Origin: an uncultured Actinomycetota bacterium
GTDB taxonomy: Bacteria > Actinomycetota > Acidimicrobiia > Spongiisociales > UBA4744
Direction of reading: 5' to 3'
DNA length: 64,000 nt
Assembly: GCA_963823915.1 (NCBI GenBank)
Contig: CAWGNJ010000005.1
Coordinates: forward strand, 119,105-183,104
This document shows positions 50,492 through 64,000 of this stretch, in pieces. The notes below the pieces were generated by a model. It searched no databases. It was not told where the DNA came from and saw nothing but the letters and a program-made list of their open reading frames with translations. The number at the start of each line of letters is the position of its first letter. Positions within the stretch are counted from its first letter, which is position 1. A program made the position numbers and the translations under genes.

Positions 50492-50540
50492 TGGGTGGCC
50501 AGGGGCAGAATCGAACTGCCGACCCCAGGTTTTTCAGACC
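50492..50540 (-). other. 3' half of tRNA-Phe(GAA), interpreted as the att site of the integrated element
   Basis: Minus strand reads GGTCTGAAAAACC-TGGGGTC-GGCAG-TTCGATT-CTGCC-CCTGGCCACCCA (anticodon arm, T arm, acceptor 3' strand); no D arm upstream; 75 bp from the integrase. Confidence 0.88.
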
Positions 50541-50615
50541 TAACATAACCCCAGCTAGACACAACTTTCTGTGCCCTGTTTGTGCTCGAAAAGTGCTCAC
50601 TTCTACAATCCGACC

Positions 50616-51731
50616 GTGAGTCACACGTACAAGTACAAGAAGGATCCCACGAAGAGCGCCAGCCGCAACAACATCGCCTGGCGAGCGGTCTGGAAGGATC
50701 CGGCCGGGCAACGGCAGACCAAGGCCGGCTTCCCGACCAAGGCCGCGGCCGACTGGTTTCTCGAGAACGTCATCGCAGATCTGATCAGCGGCTCCTACAC
50801 CGATCCGAAACGAGCGCTGACCACCTTCGACAGGTTGGCGGAGCGATGGTTCCGCACCCTGCGGGACAAATCGCCGAACACGCTCGCTGGGTACCGATCG
50901 TTGTTGGACGTTCACGTGCTACCACGATGGGGCGCCGTACCCGTCGGCGACATTGACAACCTTGGGCTGGCTGAATGGTTGGCAGAGCTTCCATTGTCAC
51001 TGTCAAGGCGCCGCCAGGCCTTCAGGGTCATCACCGCGGTCCTCCGGGTGGCTATGCGGAACGGCTACATCGCCAAGAACCCATCGGAAGGGATCACCCT
51101 GCCCGAACCACCCAAGCGCGAGCGGTACCTCACTCCCGCCGAGGTGGCCCGGTTGGCCGACGCGCTAGCGCCGGATTACGACGCCCTCGTCCTGGTGATG
51201 GCGTTCGGTGGATTGCGTTGGGGGGAAGCTGTGGCGCTGCGTCGCCGTGACGTCGACGTCGCGCGGGGAAGGCTGATCGTGTCTCGCTCCCTCGTCGAAA
51301 AGCCGGGCGGCGGGTTCCTGTTCAAGGGTACGAAGACTGAGCGGGCGCGAACAGTCGCCCTGCCTCCCGGCGTGGTCGATCGATTGGTCCGGCACCTCTC
51401 AGGAGTTCCGGACGACCAAGAGACGCTGGTGTTCACTTCATCGCAGGGCCGTCCGCTGCGCAGGTCGAATTTCAACCGCCGGTACTGGCAACCGGCCCTT
51501 TCCCGGGCTGGGCTCGAGAGTGTCACTCCCCACGATCTTCGACATACGTCCGTTGCTTTCCTTATCGCTGCGGGGGCGCCGGCCCTGCAGGTTCAGACGC
51601 ACGCCGGACATGGATCCGCACGGGTCACGCTTGATCGCTACGGGCACCTCTTCCCCGATGCCTTCGACACGACGCGAGCACTGTTGGAGAAGCTGTTCCA
51701 GGAAGGAGCTGCTGAGCTCGAGCCTAGGTAG
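50616..51731 (+). CDS. int: Tyrosine recombinase / site-specific integrase
   Basis: GLRWGEAVAL (R), HDLRH, GH, TLDRYGHL (Y); N-terminal arm-binding-type WKDPAGQRQTKAGFPTK. Confidence 0.93.
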   Translation: MSHTYKYKKDPTKSASRNNIAWRAVWKDPAGQRQTKAGFPTKAAADWFLENVIADLISGSYTDPKRALTTFDRLAERWFRTLRDKSPNTLAGYRSLLDVHVLPRWGAVPVGDIDNLGLAEWLAELPLSLSRRRQAFRVITAVLRVAMRNGYIAKNPSEGITLPEPPKRERYLTPAEVARLADALAPDYDALVLVMAFGGLRWGEAVALRRRDVDVARGRLIVSRSLVEKPGGGFLFKGTKTERARTVALPPGVVDRLVRHLSGVPDDQETLVFTSSQGRPLRRSNFNRRYWQPALSRAGLESVTPHDLRHTSVAFLIAAGAPALQVQTHAGHGSARVTLDRYGHLFPDAFDTTRALLEKLFQEGAAELEPR

Positions 51732-55537: not shown

Positions 55538-56572
55538 TCAGACTGTCTGGGGTAGGTGTTTGAAGGTCTGGCGGGCGACGTAGCGTTTCAGGCACCGCAT
55601 GATTTCGCCGCTGTTGAGCCCTTCGGTTCGTCGGCGTGCCACATACGTGCGGGTCTCTTGATGGTTGCTCATACGGGTCAACACGATGCGGTAGAGGGCG
55701 GCGTTGGCTTGACGGTCTCCTCCCCGGTTGAGTCGATACCTAGTGTTCACTTTTCCCGAGTTGGCGGGGAGTGGGGCGACCCCGCAGAGGCGAGCCCATG
55801 ACCCTTCCGAATGGAGACGGTCTGGGTTGTCGCCGGCGGTCACCAGAAGCGAGGCGGCACTGTCGACTCCGACTCCGTGGAGTTCGAGCAGTGAAGGAGC
55901 CGTCTGACTGATCAAGCCAGCGAGCATCCGGTCGATCTCTGTCATCTCATCGTTGAGCCTCTTTACCCGTCTCGCCAGGTTCCGGATCACCAGATTGGTG
56001 GTGTATTGGAGCGGGTCGGAACCCTCACGAAGCCGCATCGCGGCTGCCTCTTTGACCAGCCCGGTCTTGGGTCTGTCCTTGAAACGGACCCTGATCTCTT
56101 CGGGAGCACAGAAAACAAGATGCCGGATCTGATTCAACGATTGGATACGTTGTTGACGGGCCGAACGCCGAGCCACCAACAGAACCCGTATTTGTTCCAC
56201 CGCACCATTCCGGGCCTTCGGGGTCACCGAAGCCTCCCCGGACAGAGCAGCTCTGGCCGCTGAGACAGCATCAGTCGGATCCGACTTACCCTGTTTGCGT
56301 CGGGTCTGACGGTCGGGTCGATCTACCTCGATCACCTCGAGGTCCTGGTCCGCCAGGAACCTGGCCAGTCCAACACCCCACGATCCAGTCCCCTCAACCC
56401 CGATCCGGACGATCGGCCCGAACTCGATCAACCAGCTGAGCAGGGTCTCATACCCGGCGAGATCAGCAGGAAACGATTCCACACCCAACAGTCCACCGTT
56501 ATGGTCGACAGCCGCCGCCACATGAACATCAGCATGGGTGTCGACACCACCAGTGATACCTACGATTGACAT
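55538..56572 (-). CDS. IS110-family transposase/recombinase
   Basis: GGVDTH, GVEGTGSWG, GKSDPTDA, LCGVAPLPANSGK, RLNRGGDRQANAALY, RCLKRYVAR. Confidence 0.95.
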   Translation of the reverse strand: MSIVGITGGVDTHADVHVAAAVDHNGGLLGVESFPADLAGYETLLSWLIEFGPIVRIGVEGTGSWGVGLARFLADQDLEVIEVDRPDRQTRRKQGKSDPTDAVSAARAALSGEASVTPKARNGAVEQIRVLLVARRSARQQRIQSLNQIRHLVFCAPEEIRVRFKDRPKTGLVKEAAAMRLREGSDPLQYTTNLVIRNLARRVKRLNDEMTEIDRMLAGLISQTAPSLLELHGVGVDSAASLLVTAGDNPDRLHSEGSWARLCGVAPLPANSGKVNTRYRLNRGGDRQANAALYRIVLTRMSNHQETRTYVARRRTEGLNSGEIMRCLKRYVARQTFKHLPQTV

Positions 56573-56605
56573 GGCCGCCCCTTTCTTGTGCTTACAGGCC
56601 AAGGG

Positions 56606-56697
56606 GTGGCAAGCACCACCGGGACGGCGGACCGGACCCGACCGAGCTGGGCCTAATCAGCTCAACAGGAGAGCCACCGCCCGACCGGTGCGTGCCA
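56606..56697 (-). ncRNA. Candidate structured RNA in the IS110 upstream non-coding region
   Basis: GGCACGCACC...GGGCGG [loop] GAGCTG-ATTAGGCC-CAGCTC [loop] CCGCC...GGTGCTTGCC. Confidence 0.45.
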
Positions 56698-56966
56698 CAC
56701 CGCCCAATCATCGCTCCCAGCCGGATCTGCTCGGAACGCAGTGCGCGATATCGCTCGAGGGGAAGAGTGATATGTGCGGCTGAAGCCGGTGGGCCGAGTG
56801 CCTGTGCTTGCTCTGGATTTGGCTATTGTCGAGGGGCAATGTCTGCTATTTGCAGTGTTGTTCTGCTGCTGCGAGCTATTCGCACGGGCGGGTCGCGACA
56901 TCTCTTTAGTATTCCGTTGCAACTCTCTTCGGCCATGAGGTTGCACTATTCAATTGGCAGGTTCTG

Positions 56967-57573
56967 TCACCCATCCTGCGAGCGATGGGCGAGAAGCGCA
57001 TGCTCCACTTGTTCAAGACATGCCCTATCGATGTCGGTCAGTACACTCTCAGTTGGGTCTTCCAGAGTGTCATGTTGGAACACGATCTCCAGGTGCCCGT
57101 CCTCGTCGACTCCGGCCTTTTCCACAACCAAGCCGGTGATCTTCTCAGCTTGTAGCAGGCAGTCTTCTGCTTGTATTTGAAACTCACTCGGTAGTGGCTC
57201 CAACTCCGGCCGTATGTCGGTGGCACGCGCCATTAGCTCGTCCGCGCAGATCCAGAACCTATCTGCCCGGTCGTCATCATCCACCGCAGATCCGTCGTCA
57301 GAGACGAAGGCCTGTACCCAATCTGACTCCGCCGTATCTACCGTAATAAAGTCTCCTGTGTTGGTGAATAGAACACTCAGCGGGGCTTCAGCGACATATC
57401 CTCCGCCTGCCATACATTCCTCGAACACGGCTGTGCCATCAACCATTTCGGTTCGAAGACCTTGGATGACCTTCTCCTCTGCTGAGGCGTCGGGACGCGG
57501 CGGAGGCTGTCAACGCCACGACGGTGCCGACAAGTCCGAGGACCAGGACGACTGTTGTGATTCGTTTCGTCAT
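56967..57573 (-). CDS. Secreted acidic hypothetical protein; frameshift near 57490
   Basis: GAGGAG RBS; MTKRITTVVLVLGLVGTVVALTASAA signal peptide joins ORF 56967..57446, which has four Cys. Confidence 0.65.
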
Positions 57574-57626
57574 CTTCTCTCCTCTGTCATCGTACGCTCT
57601 CAAGAACTGCAGATTGCCGCTCGGTC

Positions 57627-57955
57627 TTATGGTGGGCTACATCCTGAAGTCATGTAATGCGTGAAGCGCGGCCAGACGAGGTCATGCCATGAGTGGATCG
57701 GCTGCACGTTTGATGAGACGTAATCGCTACCGACGTAGGAGGTCTTCAGGAGCTTGTTGAGGCTAGTTGTGAAGCCGGAATAGAGCGTCGATGTTGCCCC
57801 GCTGTAATAGTCATTGATCTGGAGTGCCTGGGTGTGGCTCTTGTCGTCATAATCTCGCTGCTGGGTGTAGGCACTCGCTCTCCAACTGGAATTTGAACAG
57901 GATGCCCCTATGCCGTTTGCAACGGTCCTACCATCCTGTTCCTTTCGTCCCTCAC
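57627..57955 (-). CDS. Hypothetical S/T/Y/H-rich protein; start uncertain or frameshifted
   Basis: Coding-like ASCSNSSWRASAY...HSWHDLVWPRFTHYMTSGCSPP; AGGAGGTG near 57960. Confidence 0.45.
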
Positions 57956-58189
57956 CTCCTCGTTCTTGGGCTCGTCGCCAGTGCGACGTCGCCCTCTCGA
58001 CCCACCGTCTGGGGCCGAAGCCCGCTGCGATCCTCAGCGCTCCTTTCTTCACTGCACATTGGTCTCGTCGGTTTGGGGACGGCAACCCACTCACGAGGTT
58101 CCAAGGGCAAGGGCAGAGCTTGGTAGGTGGCGTGATGCCACCGATTCCCTTCGGCGCCTTGTTCCGTGTCGAGAAGCGCATGCCTACTG

Positions 58190-58215
58190 TGTGTCCGGTC
58201 CTTCCCGCGTGTCGC
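58190..58215 (-). promoter_or_regulatory. ECF-type promoter motif, copy A
   Basis: GCGAC-ACGCGGGAAGGACC-GGACACA. Confidence 0.65.
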
Positions 58216-58533
58216 GCCCGCTCGCCCTTTCTGAACCGGGCCGGGTCTTGGAGGCTCGAATCTCCACACGGGATGCGAGGGGGCATTCCGTCCGAGGTGC
58301 ATGACTGTCCATCCCCGGTGTTACTGCTCGTCCACCCGCTTATCGGTCGACGGAGGGATGCGGCTTCGAATTTGATGGCGAAGGTGTTGGGGGCCGCTTT
58401 GTGCCAGGGGCGGCAACGGCGCGGCCGTGCAGCCCAGCTTCCAAATGCCGGAACACAGACCGAATGCCGAAACTAAATCGATGGGCCGGGCCGGCCCTTG
58501 TCGAGATGGGTACGACGCCGTTGCCTGATTTCT

Positions 58534-59279
58534 CTAGCCGGGGTCGGGGATGGGGATGAGGTGGATGGTTCGTTGTTGGGCGTCCAGTCCGAAGCTTGCG
58601 CAGGGACGGTCTGGGCTGCCGGGAATAGGCTCAATTGTCCATTGGGTGAGCCCTGCGTCGGCGACGGCCTGTTCGATGTAGCGTGCTGCTTCGTCGAGTG
58701 GCACGCATGCATTGCTGGTGAAGTGGGCGGCGAGTTGGTCATTGAGTTGTCTGATTGTTTCGCCTTCGGGGATGGATTGGTCGTCAGGCAGGCTTAGTCC
58801 GAGCTGTGCGCAGAGAGTGGGGTCGTTGCTGGGGAAGACGGCGAGGCTGTCAGTGTCGGTGACACAGCCGAGGAGGGGAGGTATTGAGCCGGCAGGTGTT
58901 ATGTCCGGGTTGGTGAGAGTTCCCTCTTCCCACATTTGGGTGCACACCGAAGGGTCGAGTCGTCCGCCCGATGCCACTCCTACACGGTCGCTGTCGAGGG
59001 TGGGAGCCTGGTAGCACCCGATTGCGATTGGGTCGGAGATGGCTCGGATGGCGATCCAGGCGGCGGCGATGGTGGCCAGCGCCACGAACGCGAGAGCCAA
59101 CGCCACCCGCAATCGCCGCCTGGAGGGTCTCAGACGGAGGGCGCGGGGCGTGTGCCGGGGCTCCGATAGGATCCCCGCCAGCAGTTGTTGGGCTTCGGGA
59201 GTCTGATGGTCGGGCAGGCGGTCCTCATCGACAGGGTCGCGCCGCGGAGGAGTTCGAAGGCGTCATCGGGGTTGCCCAT
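58534..59279 (-). CDS. Putative anti-sigma factor (single TM, Cys-rich extracytoplasmic domain); frameshift near 59245
   Basis: GGAGGAGG RBS; MGNPDDAFELLR...DPV...EAQQLLAGIL, RRRLR + TM, six Cys; directly downstream of the ECF sigma gene. Confidence 0.7.
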
Positions 59280-59336
59280 ATGCCTCCTCCTCATCTAGTC
59301 GCGGGGAATACGTCAGACGGTCGCCTCCCACTATGT

Positions 59337-59362
59337 TGTGTCCAACTGAGTGGATTCGTTGC
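59337..59362 (-). promoter_or_regulatory. ECF-type promoter motif, copy B
   Basis: GCAAC-GAATCCACTCAGTT-GGACACA. Confidence 0.65.
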
Positions 59363-59375
59363 GGTGGGAAGAGCA

Positions 59376-59948
59376 TCAGTCGTTCTCCCCGCCACTTCCA
59401 GGTGCCTTCGCGGCACCCTCGTATGCGGCCTGTAAGCGTTGTCTGGCGCGGAATAGCCGACTCCTCACCAGCGCAGATCGGATACCGAGAACGCTAGCGA
59501 TCTCAGGGTTGGTCAGTTCTTCGAAAGCGACCAGGCGCAGGATCTCCTGATCCCGCTGGGTCAGAGTGGCCAGGGCGTTGAGGACCTGATCGAGTGTCTC
59601 GCTTGTTTCGGCGACCGACGGCGCCAGGTCCGGTTGGGAGGCGGGCAGCTCCGGCCTAACTCGCTCACTGAGACGTGCTGCCCGGGCGGCTGTGCGTCGC
59701 TGGTTGGAGAGCGTCCGATACGCCACGCCGTAGAGCCACGCCAGCGGGATGTCGGCGGCGATCACCTCCTCGAGTCGTCTCCACGCCACCAGAAAGGTGC
59801 TCGCCACCAGATCATCCGCGTCCATAAGGTTGGGTGTGCGTCGTCTGGCGTAGGCGAGCACCTTCCGGTAGGTAGTGGCATAGAGCAGCTCGAACTCTCG
59901 GCGACCCTCCTCCGGTCCCAGCCGGAAACCACTGTTGCCACCGGTCAC
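59376..59948 (-). CDS. ECF sigma-70 factor
   Basis: Region 2 DADDLVASTFLVAWRR...AWLYGVA; region 4 LTQRDQEIL...EIASVLGI...VRSRLFRAR. Confidence 0.92.
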   Translation of the reverse strand: MTGGNSGFRLGPEEGRREFELLYATTYRKVLAYARRRTPNLMDADDLVASTFLVAWRRLEEVIAADIPLAWLYGVAYRTLSNQRRTAARAARLSERVRPELPASQPDLAPSVAETSETLDQVLNALATLTQRDQEILRLVAFEELTNPEIASVLGIRSALVRSRLFRARQRLQAAYEGAAKAPGSGGEND

Positions 59949-60011
59949 CTCGGCCTCGCCTGGCCAAGCAGATGACGGTTGGGGTGCTGCGGTCGCAGCC
60001 GATCGCGGATT

Positions 60012-60596
60012 CTATTGGAGATATACGGAGGAGACCCGGTTGTTCCACCCCGAGGCCATAAACGGTGCAACATCCCACGCCTGGGTTCCCGAACTCGGGT
60101 ACCAGCTTCCCCCTCCCCAATCACCATCAGCGAAGTAAGCCGAGCAGGCGCTGATCTTGAACGACGAGGTGCGATTGGAAAACCCGTACCCGCTGAGGTT
60201 GAGCCACTGCGAACGATCCCGCAAATACAACACCGACCCGCTGTAGTTGGTGCCGTCATACATCCGAATATACCCAGAACACAACGAAGACCGGCCCGAT
60301 GCCAACCCGCCACCCGGGGCAATGTTCTGTTCGATTCCGGCGACCCGGGCATCCAACGCCTCCTCGGTACGGAAGCATTCCACCACGCCCACATCGTTCC
60401 AAACCAGACAAGCGGTGGCATCCCCCCAATCTTCCGCCAAGTTGATCTCTGTGCCTTCAAAAACCGCCGTCTCACCCTTGATCTTCTCTATCGCCGACGC
60501 TGGTGGCGCGACGGCACCCACGAGGGCAAGAAGCACTGCCATCATCACAAACCGTTGTGCCCAGGAACGCTGGGCCTCAACTCGACTGAATACCAC
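60012..60596 (-). CDS. Secreted peptidase-inhibitor-I36 / beta-gamma-crystallin-like protein
   Basis: Signal peptide APPASA; CSGYIRMYDGTNYSG, FSNRTSSF, WNNRVSSV; AGGAGG RBS. Confidence 0.78.
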   Translation of the reverse strand: MVFSRVEAQRSWAQRFVMMAVLLALVGAVAPPASAIEKIKGETAVFEGTEINLAEDWGDATACLVWNDVGVVECFRTEEALDARVAGIEQNIAPGGGLASGRSSLCSGYIRMYDGTNYSGSVLYLRDRSQWLNLSGYGFSNRTSSFKISACSAYFADGDWGGGSWYPSSGTQAWDVAPFMASGWNNRVSSVYLQ

Positions 60597-60659
60597 GATT
60601 CCCTCCTAACGGTTCCGGCCGTGACCGCTCAGTCGCGGCCCGTAGGTATCGAATCGGTA

Positions 60660-60685
60660 TGTGTCCGAATCCGGACATCCGTCGC
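60660..60685 (-). promoter_or_regulatory. ECF-type promoter motif, copy C
   Basis: GCGAC-GGATGTCCGGATTC-GGACACA. Confidence 0.65.
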
Positions 60686-60704
60686 GCTTTGGGTATCACC
60701 CCCC

Positions 60705-60730
60705 GCGACAGACCAGGCGCAACGGACACA
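60705..60730 (+). promoter_or_regulatory. ECF-type promoter motif, copy D (divergent from C)
   Basis: GCGAC-AGACCAGGCGCAAC-GGACACA. Confidence 0.65.
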
Positions 60731-60781
60731 ACCTCTCGCGACGAGGTTCAGAAAAGGGCTCACGGGACGGGAGGTGTTCCC

Positions 60782-61429
60782 ATGCTCGATGACAATCGAG
60801 TGATTGCCCGGCGGGCAATTGCAGTTGACATCGACATCGCCCCGGTCCCCAGAAGCCGACTGGCCGCCGCCCTGCACCGCAGCGGGCGCCGAGGGCAACT
60901 CGTCGATGACCTCCACGGCTGGATCACCTCCCACCACGACGCGGTCGTGTTCTTCGCTGCCGGCTCATCGAGCCCTCCCGACGAGCCACTGTTTCGAAAC
61001 GCACGCCGGTACCAGGTGGACCTCGTTGCAGTGATCAACGGCGATGCGGAACCTGCCGACTACCGCCACTGGCTTCGAGCTGGCAGCATATCCGTGGTAA
61101 ATACTGCGGCATCGATACAGGAGGTGAGCCTCCAGGTGGAAGGAGCCCTCTTGGGCGCTGTGGTCATCCCCACCAAGAGCGCCGCCGCGATGACCAGACG
61201 GCTCGCCGAACCACCCACAGGAATCGTAATCGACCAGCGACAAATCGAGATCCTCGAAGCGTTTGCCTCTGGAGCGAAGTTGCCGGCGATCGCCAAACGG
61301 CTCGATCGATCCGAACGCCACACCAGACGATTGATCCGCCTGCTCGTTGATGAATTGGGAGCAGCCAACACGCACGCCGCCGTCGCAACGGCTACGAGTT
61401 GGGGATGGATCGCGTCTTGCCACCACTGA
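60782..61429 (+). CDS. LuxR-type HTH regulator with degenerate receiver-like N-domain
   Basis: GGAGG RBS; QIEILEAFASG...IAKRLDRSERHTRR...LGAANTHAAVATATSWGWI. Confidence 0.8.
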   Translation: MLDDNRVIARRAIAVDIDIAPVPRSRLAAALHRSGRRGQLVDDLHGWITSHHDAVVFFAAGSSSPPDEPLFRNARRYQVDLVAVINGDAEPADYRHWLRAGSISVVNTAASIQEVSLQVEGALLGAVVIPTKSAAAMTRRLAEPPTGIVIDQRQIEILEAFASGAKLPAIAKRLDRSERHTRRLIRLLVDELGAANTHAAVATATSWGWIASCHH

Positions 61430-61473
61430 AGCTGGCAAAAAGCCTGATTGGCCTGGCCACGCGATCCCCTGTG

Positions 61474-61514
61474 AGTGCTAGGCCCAAGCCCCTTCCCGGC
61501 TTGGGCCTAGCACT
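61474..61514. terminator. 17-bp perfect inverted repeat, likely a bidirectional terminator
   Basis: AGTGCTAGGCCCAAGCC-CCTTCCC-GGCTTGGGCCTAGCACT between convergent units. Confidence 0.78.
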
Positions 61515-61777
61515 TCCTAGCCGTGTTGTCCTGAATCGATTTGCTGCTCGCTTCTGCTCGGCCCTGTCAGGAGATTGATGCGGTGCGAGTAATCATTGTC
61601 TGGAGCAAGAACGTCGTCTCGAAAGAGAGGTTCTTGTTTTCGTCTCACCGTGCCCCAACGTTGCCAGCTGCCCTCTTTTCGAACCGTGCGTGCAATCCCG
61701 CACACGGCTCTCCGACTCAGCTGACTTCGGTTAGCGGCGGCGGTTACGTCACCTCCGGGCAAGAGCCAGACGACAGT

Positions 61778-62209
61778 TCAATTGGTTTGAGATGTGTGGT
61801 CATGAGTGTAGGCGCCCCAAGACGCACACGGCTGCATGTAGCCCCCAGAGCTTGCGAGTTTGTGGGACCCGTCAACGGCGCAAGCTACGGACTCGAGCTT
61901 GTAGGCCGTCTGCAGGAAGTACCTTGTGGAAGTCTTCCGATATCCACAAGAGCCTGAGCAAGTTAGGGTTTCCTCGTCAATTAGCCCTCCCCCCGTGGTT
62001 AAGCGCCTCCATCTTGCATACGAGGACTGGACCGTGGTCGTCGCTCCGATATCAGCGTACGACCAGTATTGGCTTGAGCCATAATCATTCCAATGGAGAT
62101 CATGATGATTCCAGCTACCGTGGCTTGCGGCCGCAGGGACGCCGACAGCGATCACCAGAGTGACCGCTATGGCTGCTGCGAGCCGATAGTTCGTGTGAGA
62201 CCGCTTCAT
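61778..62209 (-). CDS. Secreted His/Cys-rich small protein, paralogue 2
   Basis: Signal peptide ending PAAAS, then HGSWNHHDLHW...CSGSC...CAVDGSH...C...HDH. Confidence 0.8.
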   Translation of the reverse strand: MKRSHTNYRLAAAIAVTLVIAVGVPAAASHGSWNHHDLHWNDYGSSQYWSYADIGATTTVQSSYARWRRLTTGGGLIDEETLTCSGSCGYRKTSTRYFLQTAYKLESVACAVDGSHKLASSGGYMQPCASWGAYTHDHTSQTN

Positions 62210-62335
62210 ATCGACAACCCCTGTGGTTAGTTGCAGGCATTCCTCTCGGTACGAGTGAACGGCAAAGAATGGGCGGAAGCGCTTTGCCGTTCACTCAGTT
62301 CTGTTGGCCGATGCACTGTCTTACAGCTGATCTGG

Positions 62336-62776
62336 TCAGTTGGTTGTAGCGGCATGGACGTGGGCATAGAGCTGCTGCACCGCCGTGCAATCCCATATCC
62401 ATTGGCCAGACGATGGAAATTCATGGGAGCCATCCTTCGCACAGGAAATGCCTCTGATGATGTACGCCGTCTGCGGGAAGTACCTCGTAGGGGTCTTCTT
62501 GTATCCACAGCTTCCCGTGCAACTTATGCTCTCGCCATCCAGCCAGGTCCACCTCGTAGTCCAGCGTTGCCATTGTGCGTAGACGAAGTCCACATTGTTT
62601 GTTGCGCCAATGTCGGCGTATGACCAGTACTGGCTTGGTCCACTTTCGCCCCAATGCAGGTCATGGTGATTCCAAGTGCCGTGACCTGCTGCGACGGGTC
62701 CCGCGGTCAAGACCACGAGTAGGGCGATGATCACCGAACGGTTGAGAAGGCTGCGCAAACTTTTCATGGCGCTCAT
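62336..62776 (-). CDS. Secreted His/Cys-rich small protein, paralogue 1
   Basis: Signal peptide ending PVAAG, then HGTWNHHDLHW...CTGSC...CAKDGSH...C...HVH. Confidence 0.8.
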   Translation of the reverse strand: MSAMKSLRSLLNRSVIIALLVVLTAGPVAAGHGTWNHHDLHWGESGPSQYWSYADIGATNNVDFVYAQWQRWTTRWTWLDGESISCTGSCGYKKTPTRYFPQTAYIIRGISCAKDGSHEFPSSGQWIWDCTAVQQLYAHVHAATTN

Positions 62777-63394
62777 CCTTCGTGAGAGGGGTCATGGGAA
62801 TCGTGGATGAGTGCTGAGACGTCGCGGCTTGCAGCGTCCCAAAGGTCCACGGTTGGCGAGCCCGAGGCGTAAGCTGTCTTCACGTGAGGAGACCGGGGGT
62901 GGCTCCGAGCTATGGCGACTAGCGCACCATTGCTGTCTTGATAGTCGAACACCACGTCGGCGAACGTCTCCTGCAGGTAGGTCTTCCAGTCAGCGTCGGT
63001 GGTTTCGCTATGAAGCACCGTTGGCGCTAGCTGGATGGCTACGGTTCCATCCTCATCAGCGAACTCCACGAAGACAGCGCGAACGTAGCTATCCTCGCCG
63101 TTCCAGCTGGCCAGGCACGTGACGCTCACGGGCTTGGCGATGTCGATTACCTGCGCCGGGACACTTGTCCCTCGCAAGCCCACCGACGTGAGTATGTCTC
63201 CTCGCTGGCTCTCGAGATCCATGACTGCATTGCACGGATCGGGCCCGGGGCTAGAGACCTCAAGACTCTGCGGCTCGCTCTTGTCGGCAAGTGCCGTCCC
63301 AGCGAACGCGAAGTGCGGATACGACCGATAACCCTGTCAAGACGAGCAAGATTGCCCGTCTTGTGGGATTTCTCTTCTGGCCAGTTCGAATCAT
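62773..63394 (-). CDS. Secreted or membrane-anchored hypothetical protein; frameshift near 63330
   Basis: MIRTGQKRNPTRRAILLVLTG N-terminus joins ...PDPCNAVMDLESQRG... (ORF 62773..63222); its stop overlaps the next start. Confidence 0.6.
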
Positions 63395-63721
63395 GACACC
63401 AAACCCCTTTCACTCAGTACGATGTCCGTCGAATAGCACACCAAGGTTGAGACACTGGAGAGAAGGACACGCGGCGCAGTGCTGGCCTGATATTCCGAAA
63501 ACACCCCAGGTTTCAAACCCGAAATGAACACCTAGGCCGACTGAGTCATCGGTCATCGCCATTTCACAATCCCTACTCATAGCCGCTGCTATCCGTGGTC
63601 TCATTCCTGCGAAATCCTCCCTTCTGCAGCACGTGAAGCAGGAGTCCCGGGATGCCCGTCGGCGACCTTGTCCCTGATCCTCGCATCCCGTGGCTGAGTA
63701 TCGAGTGGCGAACACCTGCTA

Positions 63722-63747
63722 TGTGTCCAGTCCTTCCCGAATGTCGC
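63722..63747 (-). promoter_or_regulatory. ECF-type promoter motif, copy E
   Basis: GCGAC-ATTCGGGAAGGACT-GGACACA. Confidence 0.65.
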
Positions 63748-64000
63748 AGCCGCCAAGCGTCGTTCGCCGCTTGCTTGAACTCTGTGGATCTCTCTCGTGT
63801 CGAAGGTCTGGCGTGAGATGAACTAGACGCCGCCACCACACCAGGCAACCTGCGCCACAGGATGGTCACATCGGGTACACGCCGATGCCCGGACGGGCGA
63901 CCAGAGGACGCCTACGCCCTCATAGGTAACGCCGACACATGCAGGAGTGCTCGTTTGCTCGCGTGGCGGTTTCGCGGCGCGTTTGAGAAGCAGCCGATAT

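Follow-up and report, generated by a model that had tools for sequence, protein, structure and literature searches.

Escherichia coli sigmaE-RseA and Bacillus subtilis sigmaW-RsiW are canonical examples of autoregulated extracytoplasmic function (ECF) sigma factors that are paired with a single-pass anti-sigma factor, and the Cnr system is plasmid-borne and metal-sensing. ECF promoters commonly contain AAC in their -35 element and CGT in their -10 element, a rule that is not universal. Sections of a published account of ECF modules (PMC7826278) state that these sigma factors usually autoregulate and that they are encoded together with regulators and targets. Parts of a study of Sinorhizobium meliloti (Lang et al. 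2018, PMC6180224) describe ECF sigma factors that control accessory functions and whose regulons were measured. Here we analyzed a stretch of 64,000 nucleotides of DNA (hereafter the window) from an uncultured sediment bacterium of the Acidimicrobiia (assembly GCA_963823915.1, contig CAWGNJ010000005.1, positions 119,105 to 183,104), in which five copies of the sequence GC[G/A]AC-N14-GGACACA lie on a genomic island. We infer that the five sites very probably act as promoters for RNA polymerase when it carries the ECF sigma factor encoded on the island itself, at 59376-59948. A literature search on ECF sigma factors in Acidimicrobiia returned no paper. Among the matches listed, none was relevant by title for a crystallin combined with an ECF sigma and an anti-sigma factor, and none was on point by title for an island-borne ECF sigma factor.

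The locus shares several features with canonical modules as these are described in sections of PMC7826278: the sigma factor has two domains, a candidate promoter of its own precedes the operon, and a membrane inhibitor is encoded with it. In a structural model the inhibitor contacts both sigma2 and sigma4, and the predicted regulon is small, concerns envelope or secreted proteins and is marked by one two-part promoter. The locus differs from canonical modules in that the operon on the island begins with a secreted crystallin-like gene, the -10 part reads GGACACA, the anti-sigma gene has its own promoter copy in about half of the loci, and the cytoplasmic part of the inhibitor comprises ~50 residues without a Pfam anti-sigma match.

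Five exactly spaced sites are confined to one region of the genome

The five sites, designated A to E, are as follows.

58190-58215, minus strand: candidate promoter A, GCGAC-N14-GGACACA, directed into secreted module 1, ~260 nt from the first plausible start.
59337-59362, minus strand: candidate promoter B, GCAAC-N14-GGACACA, in the gap that separates the sigma stop (59376) from the anti-sigma ATG (59281), 55 nt from this ATG.
60660-60685, minus strand: candidate promoter C, 63 nt before the GTG (60596) of the operon containing the crystallin-like gene and the sigma gene.
60705-60730, plus strand: candidate promoter D, divergent from C, with the ATG (60782) of the LuxR-like gene 51 nt downstream.
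63722-63747, minus strand: candidate promoter E, directed into secreted module 2, ~327 nt from the first plausible start.

A pattern scan of both strands detected exactly five matches to GCRAC-N14-GGACACA in the window, where 0.03 are expected, and none of 100 dinucleotide shuffles reached five. The assembly to which the window belongs contains 2,317,647 bases in 6 contigs (52.7% complete as judged by marker genes), and the five matches in the window are the only ones present in it. No match was found anywhere in the assembly when the spacer was 13 or 15 nt, and the same was true, spacing by spacing, for the whole of the ranges 10-13 and 15-19 nt. Genome totals of 150 GGACACA heptamers and 14,165 GCRAC pentamers lead to 0.46 chance pairings expected genome-wide at one fixed spacing, corresponding to a Poisson P(>=5) of 1.2e-4, a value that leaves aside the confinement of all five copies to 5.6 kb. 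Within positions 57500-64000 all five GGACACA heptamers are paired with GCRAC at N14. Allowing one mismatch brought in six more sites in other parts of the genome, all of them beneath open frames 223-911 aa long; this is a crude criterion, since open frames overlie the island sites as well. The motif observation is confirmed and is far beyond chance.

These results agree with a preliminary description of this DNA, which had reported five copies with a 14-nt spacer: we found them at exactly the same coordinates and on the same strands. That description had not noticed the motif in the first 50 kb, in line with the location of all five window matches at 58190-63747, and the genome-wide enrichment that it proposed to examine is borne out by the five matches, all in the island, against the 0.46 expected. 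It had also claimed that each copy points into a transcription unit, and indeed all five copies are intergenic and aimed at a start codon on their own strand.

The motif is two-part, directional and not palindromic. In our reading GC[G/A]AC would be the -35 element (GCGAC in four copies and GCAAC in one), and GGACACA would hold the -10 element, with an ACA core 16-17 nt from the -35 pentamer. Reading the motif backwards as a promoter (TGTGTCC...GTYGC) was rejected: the copies would then aim at gene ends or away from genes. Around and after the motif, copies A and E resemble each other over ~55 nt, and it follows that they descend from one promoter and are not fully independent. Copies B, C and D have only the 12 specified bases in common. 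Codon-position GC hints, in a test that is weak here, that the long leaders behind A and E are non-coding.

The island sigma factor and its putative membrane inhibitor

The genes that lie behind sites B and C are the following.

59376-59948, minus strand: ECF sigma factor gene, 190 aa, with Pfam and TIGR02937 matches.
58534-59281, minus strand: single-pass membrane protein, putative anti-sigma factor, whose reading frame changes at ~59233-59245.
60012-60596, minus strand: first gene of the sigma operon, for a predicted secreted protein whose C-terminal domain is beta-gamma-crystallin-like.

Judged by its domain matches, the product of 59376-59948 is an ECF (group 4) sigma-70 factor, as the preliminary description had proposed for a gene in the island cargo. 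It matched Sigma70_r2 with 37.3 bits and Sigma70_r4_2 with 53.1 bits, Sigma70_ECF was also matched, and the score against TIGR02937 was 83.4 bits (cut-off 42.9). No match to region 3 was obtained, leaving the sigma2 and sigma4 domains only. The best NCBIfam subfamily was SigE-fam_strep, with 84.9 bits and hence below its cut-off of 141.55, and the closest solved structure was CnrH (E 1.3e-8), other ECF factors following at E 3e-8 to 4e-6, all of them remote. The location of copy C 63 nt before the operon of the sigma gene itself, together with the retention of the element in all 13 related loci described below, points to autoregulation of the sigma factor.

The membrane protein is predicted to have a single membrane helix, with ~50 residues on its cytoplasmic side and, outside, a domain of ~170 residues in which six cysteines are invariant. 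It had no match at E <= 0.01 in Pfam or NCBIfam, known anti-sigma domains included. Residues 17-242 of its orthologue align to 59232-58537 in one frame, and the ATG at 59281 with its ribosome-binding site is in another. The sigma/anti-sigma complex was modelled on the intact orthologous pair from G011, a related genome of the same family, each protein with its own alignment, and not on the frame-broken copy in the window. The full sigma factor together with partner residues 1-52 reached a score of 0.79, and the best of three controls reached 0.00; at the 0.79 mark a benchmark accepted 58 of 80 solved complexes and 2 of 110 mismatched pairs, figures that are approximate here since own alignments were used. 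Contact agreement among the runs was at least 82% and partner pLDDT at least 76. The modelled contacts involve both sigma2 (residues 8-55) and sigma4 (residues 112-176), which suggests that the N-terminus of the membrane protein binds the sigma factor across these two domains. The pass in this modelling may partly reflect likeness to solved sigma/anti-sigma complexes. The model is in agreement with the anti-sigma-like role that had been assigned to the gene downstream of the sigma gene.

Parts of a published description of anti-sigma factors (PMC6101532) present the class I anti-sigma domain as a three-helix bundle plus a fourth helix, and class II as a "two-helix clamp". By its predicted length, the ~50-residue segment is too short for a class I anti-sigma domain, the kind represented by zf-HC2, RsiW and RskA. 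A short cytoplasmic anti-sigma segment in front of one membrane helix is shared with the CnrYXH system of Cupriavidus metallidurans (CnrH-CnrY, PDB 4cxf). CnrYXH differs in that no CnrX-like sensor is found at the island and in that the putative island anti-sigma factor has the large Cys-rich outer domain; moreover, the likeness of the island sigma to CnrH is remote and near that of other ECF factors.

The protein encoded by the first gene of the sigma operon has a signal peptide and two domains, the C-terminal one comprising ~95 residues. Its AlphaFold2 model has a mean pLDDT of 68. The top PDB matches of the C-terminal domain are all beta-gamma-crystallins, with weak values obtained on single-domain targets (E 3e-3 to 5e-2, TM 0.53-0.65). 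Against Pfam I36 (PF03995) the protein scored 11.4 bits, below the cut-off of 21.1, and among its orthologues 4 of 11 matched this family at E <= 1, the best E being 0.041. The label "I36/crystallin" given previously may be apt as regards a beta-gamma-crystallin-like (double Greek-key) fold of the C-terminal domain; as regards I36 it fails by Pfam score. The modelled C-terminal domain resembles microbial beta-gamma-crystallins and I36 proteins (PDB 3hzb, 2kp5 and 1nps; PF03995); unlike them, the protein stays below the I36 cut-off and has an extra N-terminal domain. At one related locus (L031, ~5153) the crystallin-like gene contains an internal stop inside an otherwise aligned frame.

The motif keeps its position in related loci

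Clusters of the exact pattern were present in only 3 of 40 relatives besides the source genome. G011 contains 11 copies, four of them on one contig, G018 has three copies within 1.4 kb, and G031, which belongs to another family, has two copies 1.35 kb apart. In all three, gene order at the clusters matches that of the window, with orthologues of the crystallin-like protein, the sigma factor and the membrane protein, and the motif occupies corresponding places. Across 41 relatives, motif clusters and close orthologues of the cluster (E 1e-96 to 1e-108) occur in exactly the same four genomes.

When one genome per species was scanned, a relative of the first gene turned up at 18 loci, every one of them in Acidimicrobiia-type metagenome-assembled genomes (MAGs); the G018 and G031 contigs account for two of these loci. 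The order crystallin-like gene, ECF sigma gene, membrane protein gene was found in 13 of 13 loci from other Acidimicrobiia and the window, a set that includes the window and G011 and whose sigma factors are 33-64% identical to that of G011. The sequence GGACA[C/T] precedes the first gene in all 13, at 45-72 nt from the start in the 11 loci with the right anchor and a clear start. The -35 part of this first-gene promoter is GCGAC at exactly N14 in 8 of the 13, is shifted or variant in three and reads GAAAG in two. A divergent copy, driving either the LuxR-like gene or a secreted-protein gene, is present in nine. At the position of promoter B, G[CT]RAC-N14-GGACAC occurs in six loci and in degenerate form in two more; in all five loci without an anti-sigma copy the sigma and anti-sigma genes abut or overlap. 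The preliminary description had suggested looking at homologous loci, and there the motif proved to be kept at the same places. The six loci with the order sigma, membrane protein, crystallin-like had no exact motif, and their sigma was matched in three of the six, at 29-34% identity.

The two loci with GAAAG as -35 part, L038 and L040, are also the two in which the region-4 helix of the sigma factor reads [VA]A[VI]RL, the others having V[RK][STG]RL; their helix is without the Arg/Lys and Ser/Thr present in the other eleven. Going by these alignments, the co-variation of the -35 part and region 4 probably reflects a single evolutionary event and thus lends weak support to recognition of the sites by this sigma factor.

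Flanks and spacers differ between the 13 loci, which bears on the possibility that the copies are functionless relics of a local duplication. The ~55-nt likeness of A and E and the paralogy of two His-rich genes in module 2 would fit such an origin. Against it, B, C and D have nothing in common beyond the 12 specified bases, and the same bases recur at corresponding positions in loci with proteins that are only 33-64% identical and with different spacers and flanks. We consider this explanation highly improbable.

The divergent gene and the inverted repeat in promoter C

Site D precedes the following gene.

60782-61429, plus strand: LuxR-like helix-turn-helix (HTH) regulator, 215 aa, predicted regulon member, with a sub-threshold HTH_23 match.

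The HTH_23 match of this protein amounts to 23.2 bits against a cut-off of 24.6, NCBIfam and other matches were weak, and no GerE or related HTH domain scored above cut-off. The name "LuxR-like" used for it previously can thus lean on an HTH_23 match, one that is sub-threshold.

The preliminary description had mentioned binding of this protein to the motif as an alternative, meaning that the motif would be an operator through which the HTH protein (60782-61429) activates or represses the five units, the sigma factor reading other sites. Support for this view comes from the presence of the HTH gene in the cluster in 8 of the 13 loci, and from an inverted repeat, TGTCC-N6-GGACA, in promoter C of five of the 13, all five with the HTH gene. 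In the window, the spacer of promoter C holds this repeat as TGTCCG-GATT-CGGACA at 60662-60677; the repeat, TGTCC(G)-N4/6-(C)GGACA, is also found in L013, L031, L035 and L037, and the rest of the spacer varies. The palindrome is, however, limited to promoter C, and the motif common to all sites is directional and two-part. Furthermore, a LuxR-like query did not find the HTH gene in G018 (77% complete), G041 and G042, and these three genomes have kept 2-3 motif copies, the divergent copy driving a secreted-protein gene instead. In addition, the HTH gene itself is located behind a motif copy, as a target would be. Retention of the motif in three genomes in which no LuxR-like gene was found disfavors this alternative, and we regard it as improbable. 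The repeat in promoter C may be an operator for the HTH protein that adds a layer at the autoregulated promoter.

It is the retention of the motif without the HTH gene, its directionality and its aim at genes that lead us to hold reading of the sites by the island sigma as highly likely.

The proposed circuit is carried on a tRNA-Phe island

The island carries the following features outside the circuit.

50494-50541, strand not assigned: one border of the island, formed by 48 bp that repeat the 3' part of tRNA-Phe exactly; tRNA-Phe itself contains the other copy.
50571-51731, plus strand: tyrosine integrase (Phage_integrase, 78 bits).
55538-56602, minus strand: IS110-family transposase, inside the island and adjoining module 1.

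The intact tRNA-Phe gene is located 3.4 kb past the end of the window (L046, 3407-3482), and the 48-bp repeats delimit an island of ~17 kb that holds the whole circuit. By its integrase, its tRNA 3' repeat and the intact tRNA at the other border, the locus is carried on a tRNA-integrated island. It shares with tRNA islands that encode a tyrosine integrase the position of the integrase next to the 48-bp tRNA-Phe repeat and the intact tRNA at the opposite border. Homologues of the island integrase were present within 7 kb of the orthologous cluster in two MAGs (L029, 2-904; L028, 102-407 and 9643-10611), and tRNA genes were found near the cluster in L013, L029, L030 and L040. The word "mobile" in the preliminary description holds in the sense that the circuit is carried on an integrative island with tRNA-Phe and an integrase.

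The crystallin-like gene and the cluster were not found in any of nine genomes of the same genus (63-97% complete), which contain at most two scattered motif matches each. This distribution bears on the possibility that a different host sigma factor, such as a chromosomal ECF paralogue, reads these sites as promoters. The assembly, itself incomplete, has about seven further ECF-like genes that could supply such a reader, and the closest of them is 43% identical to the island sigma. Yet the motif occurs nowhere else in the assembly, all nine congeners lack the cluster and show only the scattered matches just mentioned, and the motif travels with this clade of sigma factors across genera and families. 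We judge recognition by another host sigma quite improbable and retain the island sigma as the reader of the sites.

Two predicted secreted modules and their protein families

Sites A and E are directed into modules 1 and 2, respectively, which comprise the following genes.

57627-57920, minus strand: module 1 gene 1, small aromatic-rich protein with a Cys near its N-terminus and another near its C-terminus; aligns loosely with the motif-driven small secreted proteins of relatives.
56967-57573, minus strand: module 1 gene 2, acidic protein with a signal peptide, in two frames, with one extra base at 57499.
62773-63394, minus strand: module 2 gene 1, protein with a signal peptide, split, with one extra base at 63311.
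62336-62776, minus strand: module 2 gene 2, predicted secreted His/Cys-rich beta-sandwich protein, 146 aa.
61778-62209, minus strand: module 2 gene 3, paralogue of module 2 gene 2 (51% identity).

In the window, three or four circuit genes seem to be interrupted by frameshifts. At 57499 and at 63311, where both frames are open, a base is missing from short-read contigs of the same study (one contig per position), so that the breaks at these two positions are most likely assembly indels and the genes are whole. Single-base insertions of the kind seen in the split genes may also be a cause of the low marker completeness of 52.7%. The start and signal peptide of module 1 gene 1 are unresolved in the assembly, positions 57900-57925 being without contig coverage.

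None of the nine non-sigma proteins of the window scored above cut-off against Pfam and NCBIfam. Of ten motif-driven proteins of relatives, one passed against Pfam, namely the L034 protein with 29.3 bits to I36. In the relatives the motif precedes small (~100 aa) secreted, aromatic-rich proteins with one Cys near each end, and a lipoprotein gene often comes after the small secreted-protein gene. Module 1 gene 1 of the window loosely fits this class of small, putatively Cys-bridged secreted proteins. A leader of ~130 nt between the motif and the small secreted-protein genes is kept in three copies in G011 and G014.

L016:4290-4660, L021:440-670 and L021:1910-2180: conserved leaders.

This leader may be a leader RNA element.

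The His-rich proteins of module 2 belong to a family with 38 representatives among 1.84 billion (P0002-P0039) and without a Pfam match. A word-based homologue search with the His-rich protein returned only the protein itself, and an Atlas search gave no score above 0.83 and no family. The model (pLDDT 91) is a beta-sandwich for which a fold search detected only generic Ig-like beta-sandwiches. H32, W35, H38, four Cys and H118 are invariant in the family, and H139 and H141 are nearly so. His32 follows an A-x-A-x signal-peptide end and is probably residue 2, not 1, of the mature protein, cleavage having been judged by eye. Such a location, directly behind the signal peptide, is a hint of a metal site. 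The N-terminal-histidine copper proteins LPMO and CopC, which were considered for this family, are defined by a His as mature residue 1 together with a matching fold. Among 401 Acidimicrobiia genomes the family is present in two, and the other copy, in G024, has no motif within 500 nt upstream; therefore, the His-rich family is not tied to this sigma factor everywhere. Two contigs from an RNA library of another study match with full identity, one at 62351-62600 in module 2 gene 2 and one at 61905-62155 in gene 3, which is a hint of expression only as such libraries can contain DNA. The earlier expectation that the outputs are secreted Cys/His-rich proteins thus stands for predicted secretion and for a rare His/Cys-rich family without Pfam match, the signal peptide of module 1 gene 1 being less clear.

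Other intergenic elements of the circuit region

61474-61514, strand not assigned: inverted repeat, 17 bp, perfect, between the converging LuxR-like gene and module 2, read from the sequence.

As judged from its symmetry and position, this repeat is likely a two-way terminator; a terminator scan did not list it because no T run follows. A scan of 56500-64000 for sigma-70-type promoters found 0 where 1.9 were expected, which is not significant and favors the ECF reading only weakly, and a scan of the same region with Rfam detected no leader RNA family. The Rfam model for group II intron domain V/VI gave a match at 61624-61712 on the minus strand (33.7 bits, gathering score 40, E 0.0009). The match, which lies directly behind the final gene of module 2, may be an orphan 3' fragment of an intron.

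Discussion

Taken at face value, the genes and sites would form the following circuit. At rest, the membrane protein encoded at 58534-59281 would hold the sigma factor by means of its first ~50 cytoplasmic residues. A signal outside the cell would be sensed by the Cys-rich outer domain, resulting in release of the sigma factor, and the secreted crystallin-like protein from the same operon may share in sensing. The free sigma factor would then fire promoter C, and with it the crystallin-like gene and its own gene, in a positive feedback, and promoter B, and with it the anti-sigma gene, in a negative feedback. Promoter D would give expression of the HTH regulator, perhaps as a second tier, and two operons of predicted secreted proteins would be expressed from promoters A and E.

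Several observations weigh against this reading. The distance of 260-330 nt between sites A and E and their first genes is large for a simple promoter, and since these two sites share ancestry there are about four independent copies rather than five. The -10 part, GGACACA, is without a CGT core, and GAC is commoner than AAC in the -35 part. The assembly, at 52.7% completeness, contains the ~seven further ECF-like genes mentioned above, the closest being 43% identical. The anti-sigma frame is broken in the assembly and no other contig covers the break. Finally, the related loci are kin, and their counts overstate independence.

On balance, the gene content and conserved sites make a self-activating ECF regulon on the island well supported, and this is a system of a common, well-described kind. 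Specific to the clade are the crystallin-like first gene, the separate anti-sigma promoter, the short inhibitory segment and the families of the targets. Like the ECF sigma factors of S. meliloti, as presented in parts of PMC6180224, the island sigma would have an accessory rather than a core stress role; the two cases differ in phylum, ECF groups and targets, and the island regulon is a predicted one.

A more far-reaching interpretation is that this is a portable and self-contained sensing circuit of an undescribed ECF group, with a non-canonical -10 element (GGACACA), a secreted crystallin-like co-sensor acting alongside the Cys-rich outer domain of the anti-sigma factor, a very short inhibitory segment and, among its outputs, a new family of secreted His-rich beta-sandwich proteins that bind metal, and that it serves a metal-handling or antagonism response. 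We consider this combination rather unlikely; if it were true, a recipient cell would gain a ready-made metal-handling or antagonism response.

The kind of system is in itself ordinary. What the locus offers is a clean, testable pair of promoter and sigma factor from the Acidimicrobiia, and a case in which a whole circuit of sigma factor, anti-sigma factor and targets can travel on a tRNA island. One switch would tie together four unannotated families, namely a short anti-sigma factor, its crystallin-like partner, small Cys-bridged proteins and a His-rich beta-sandwich, and thereby gives a handle for finding the roles of these four families.

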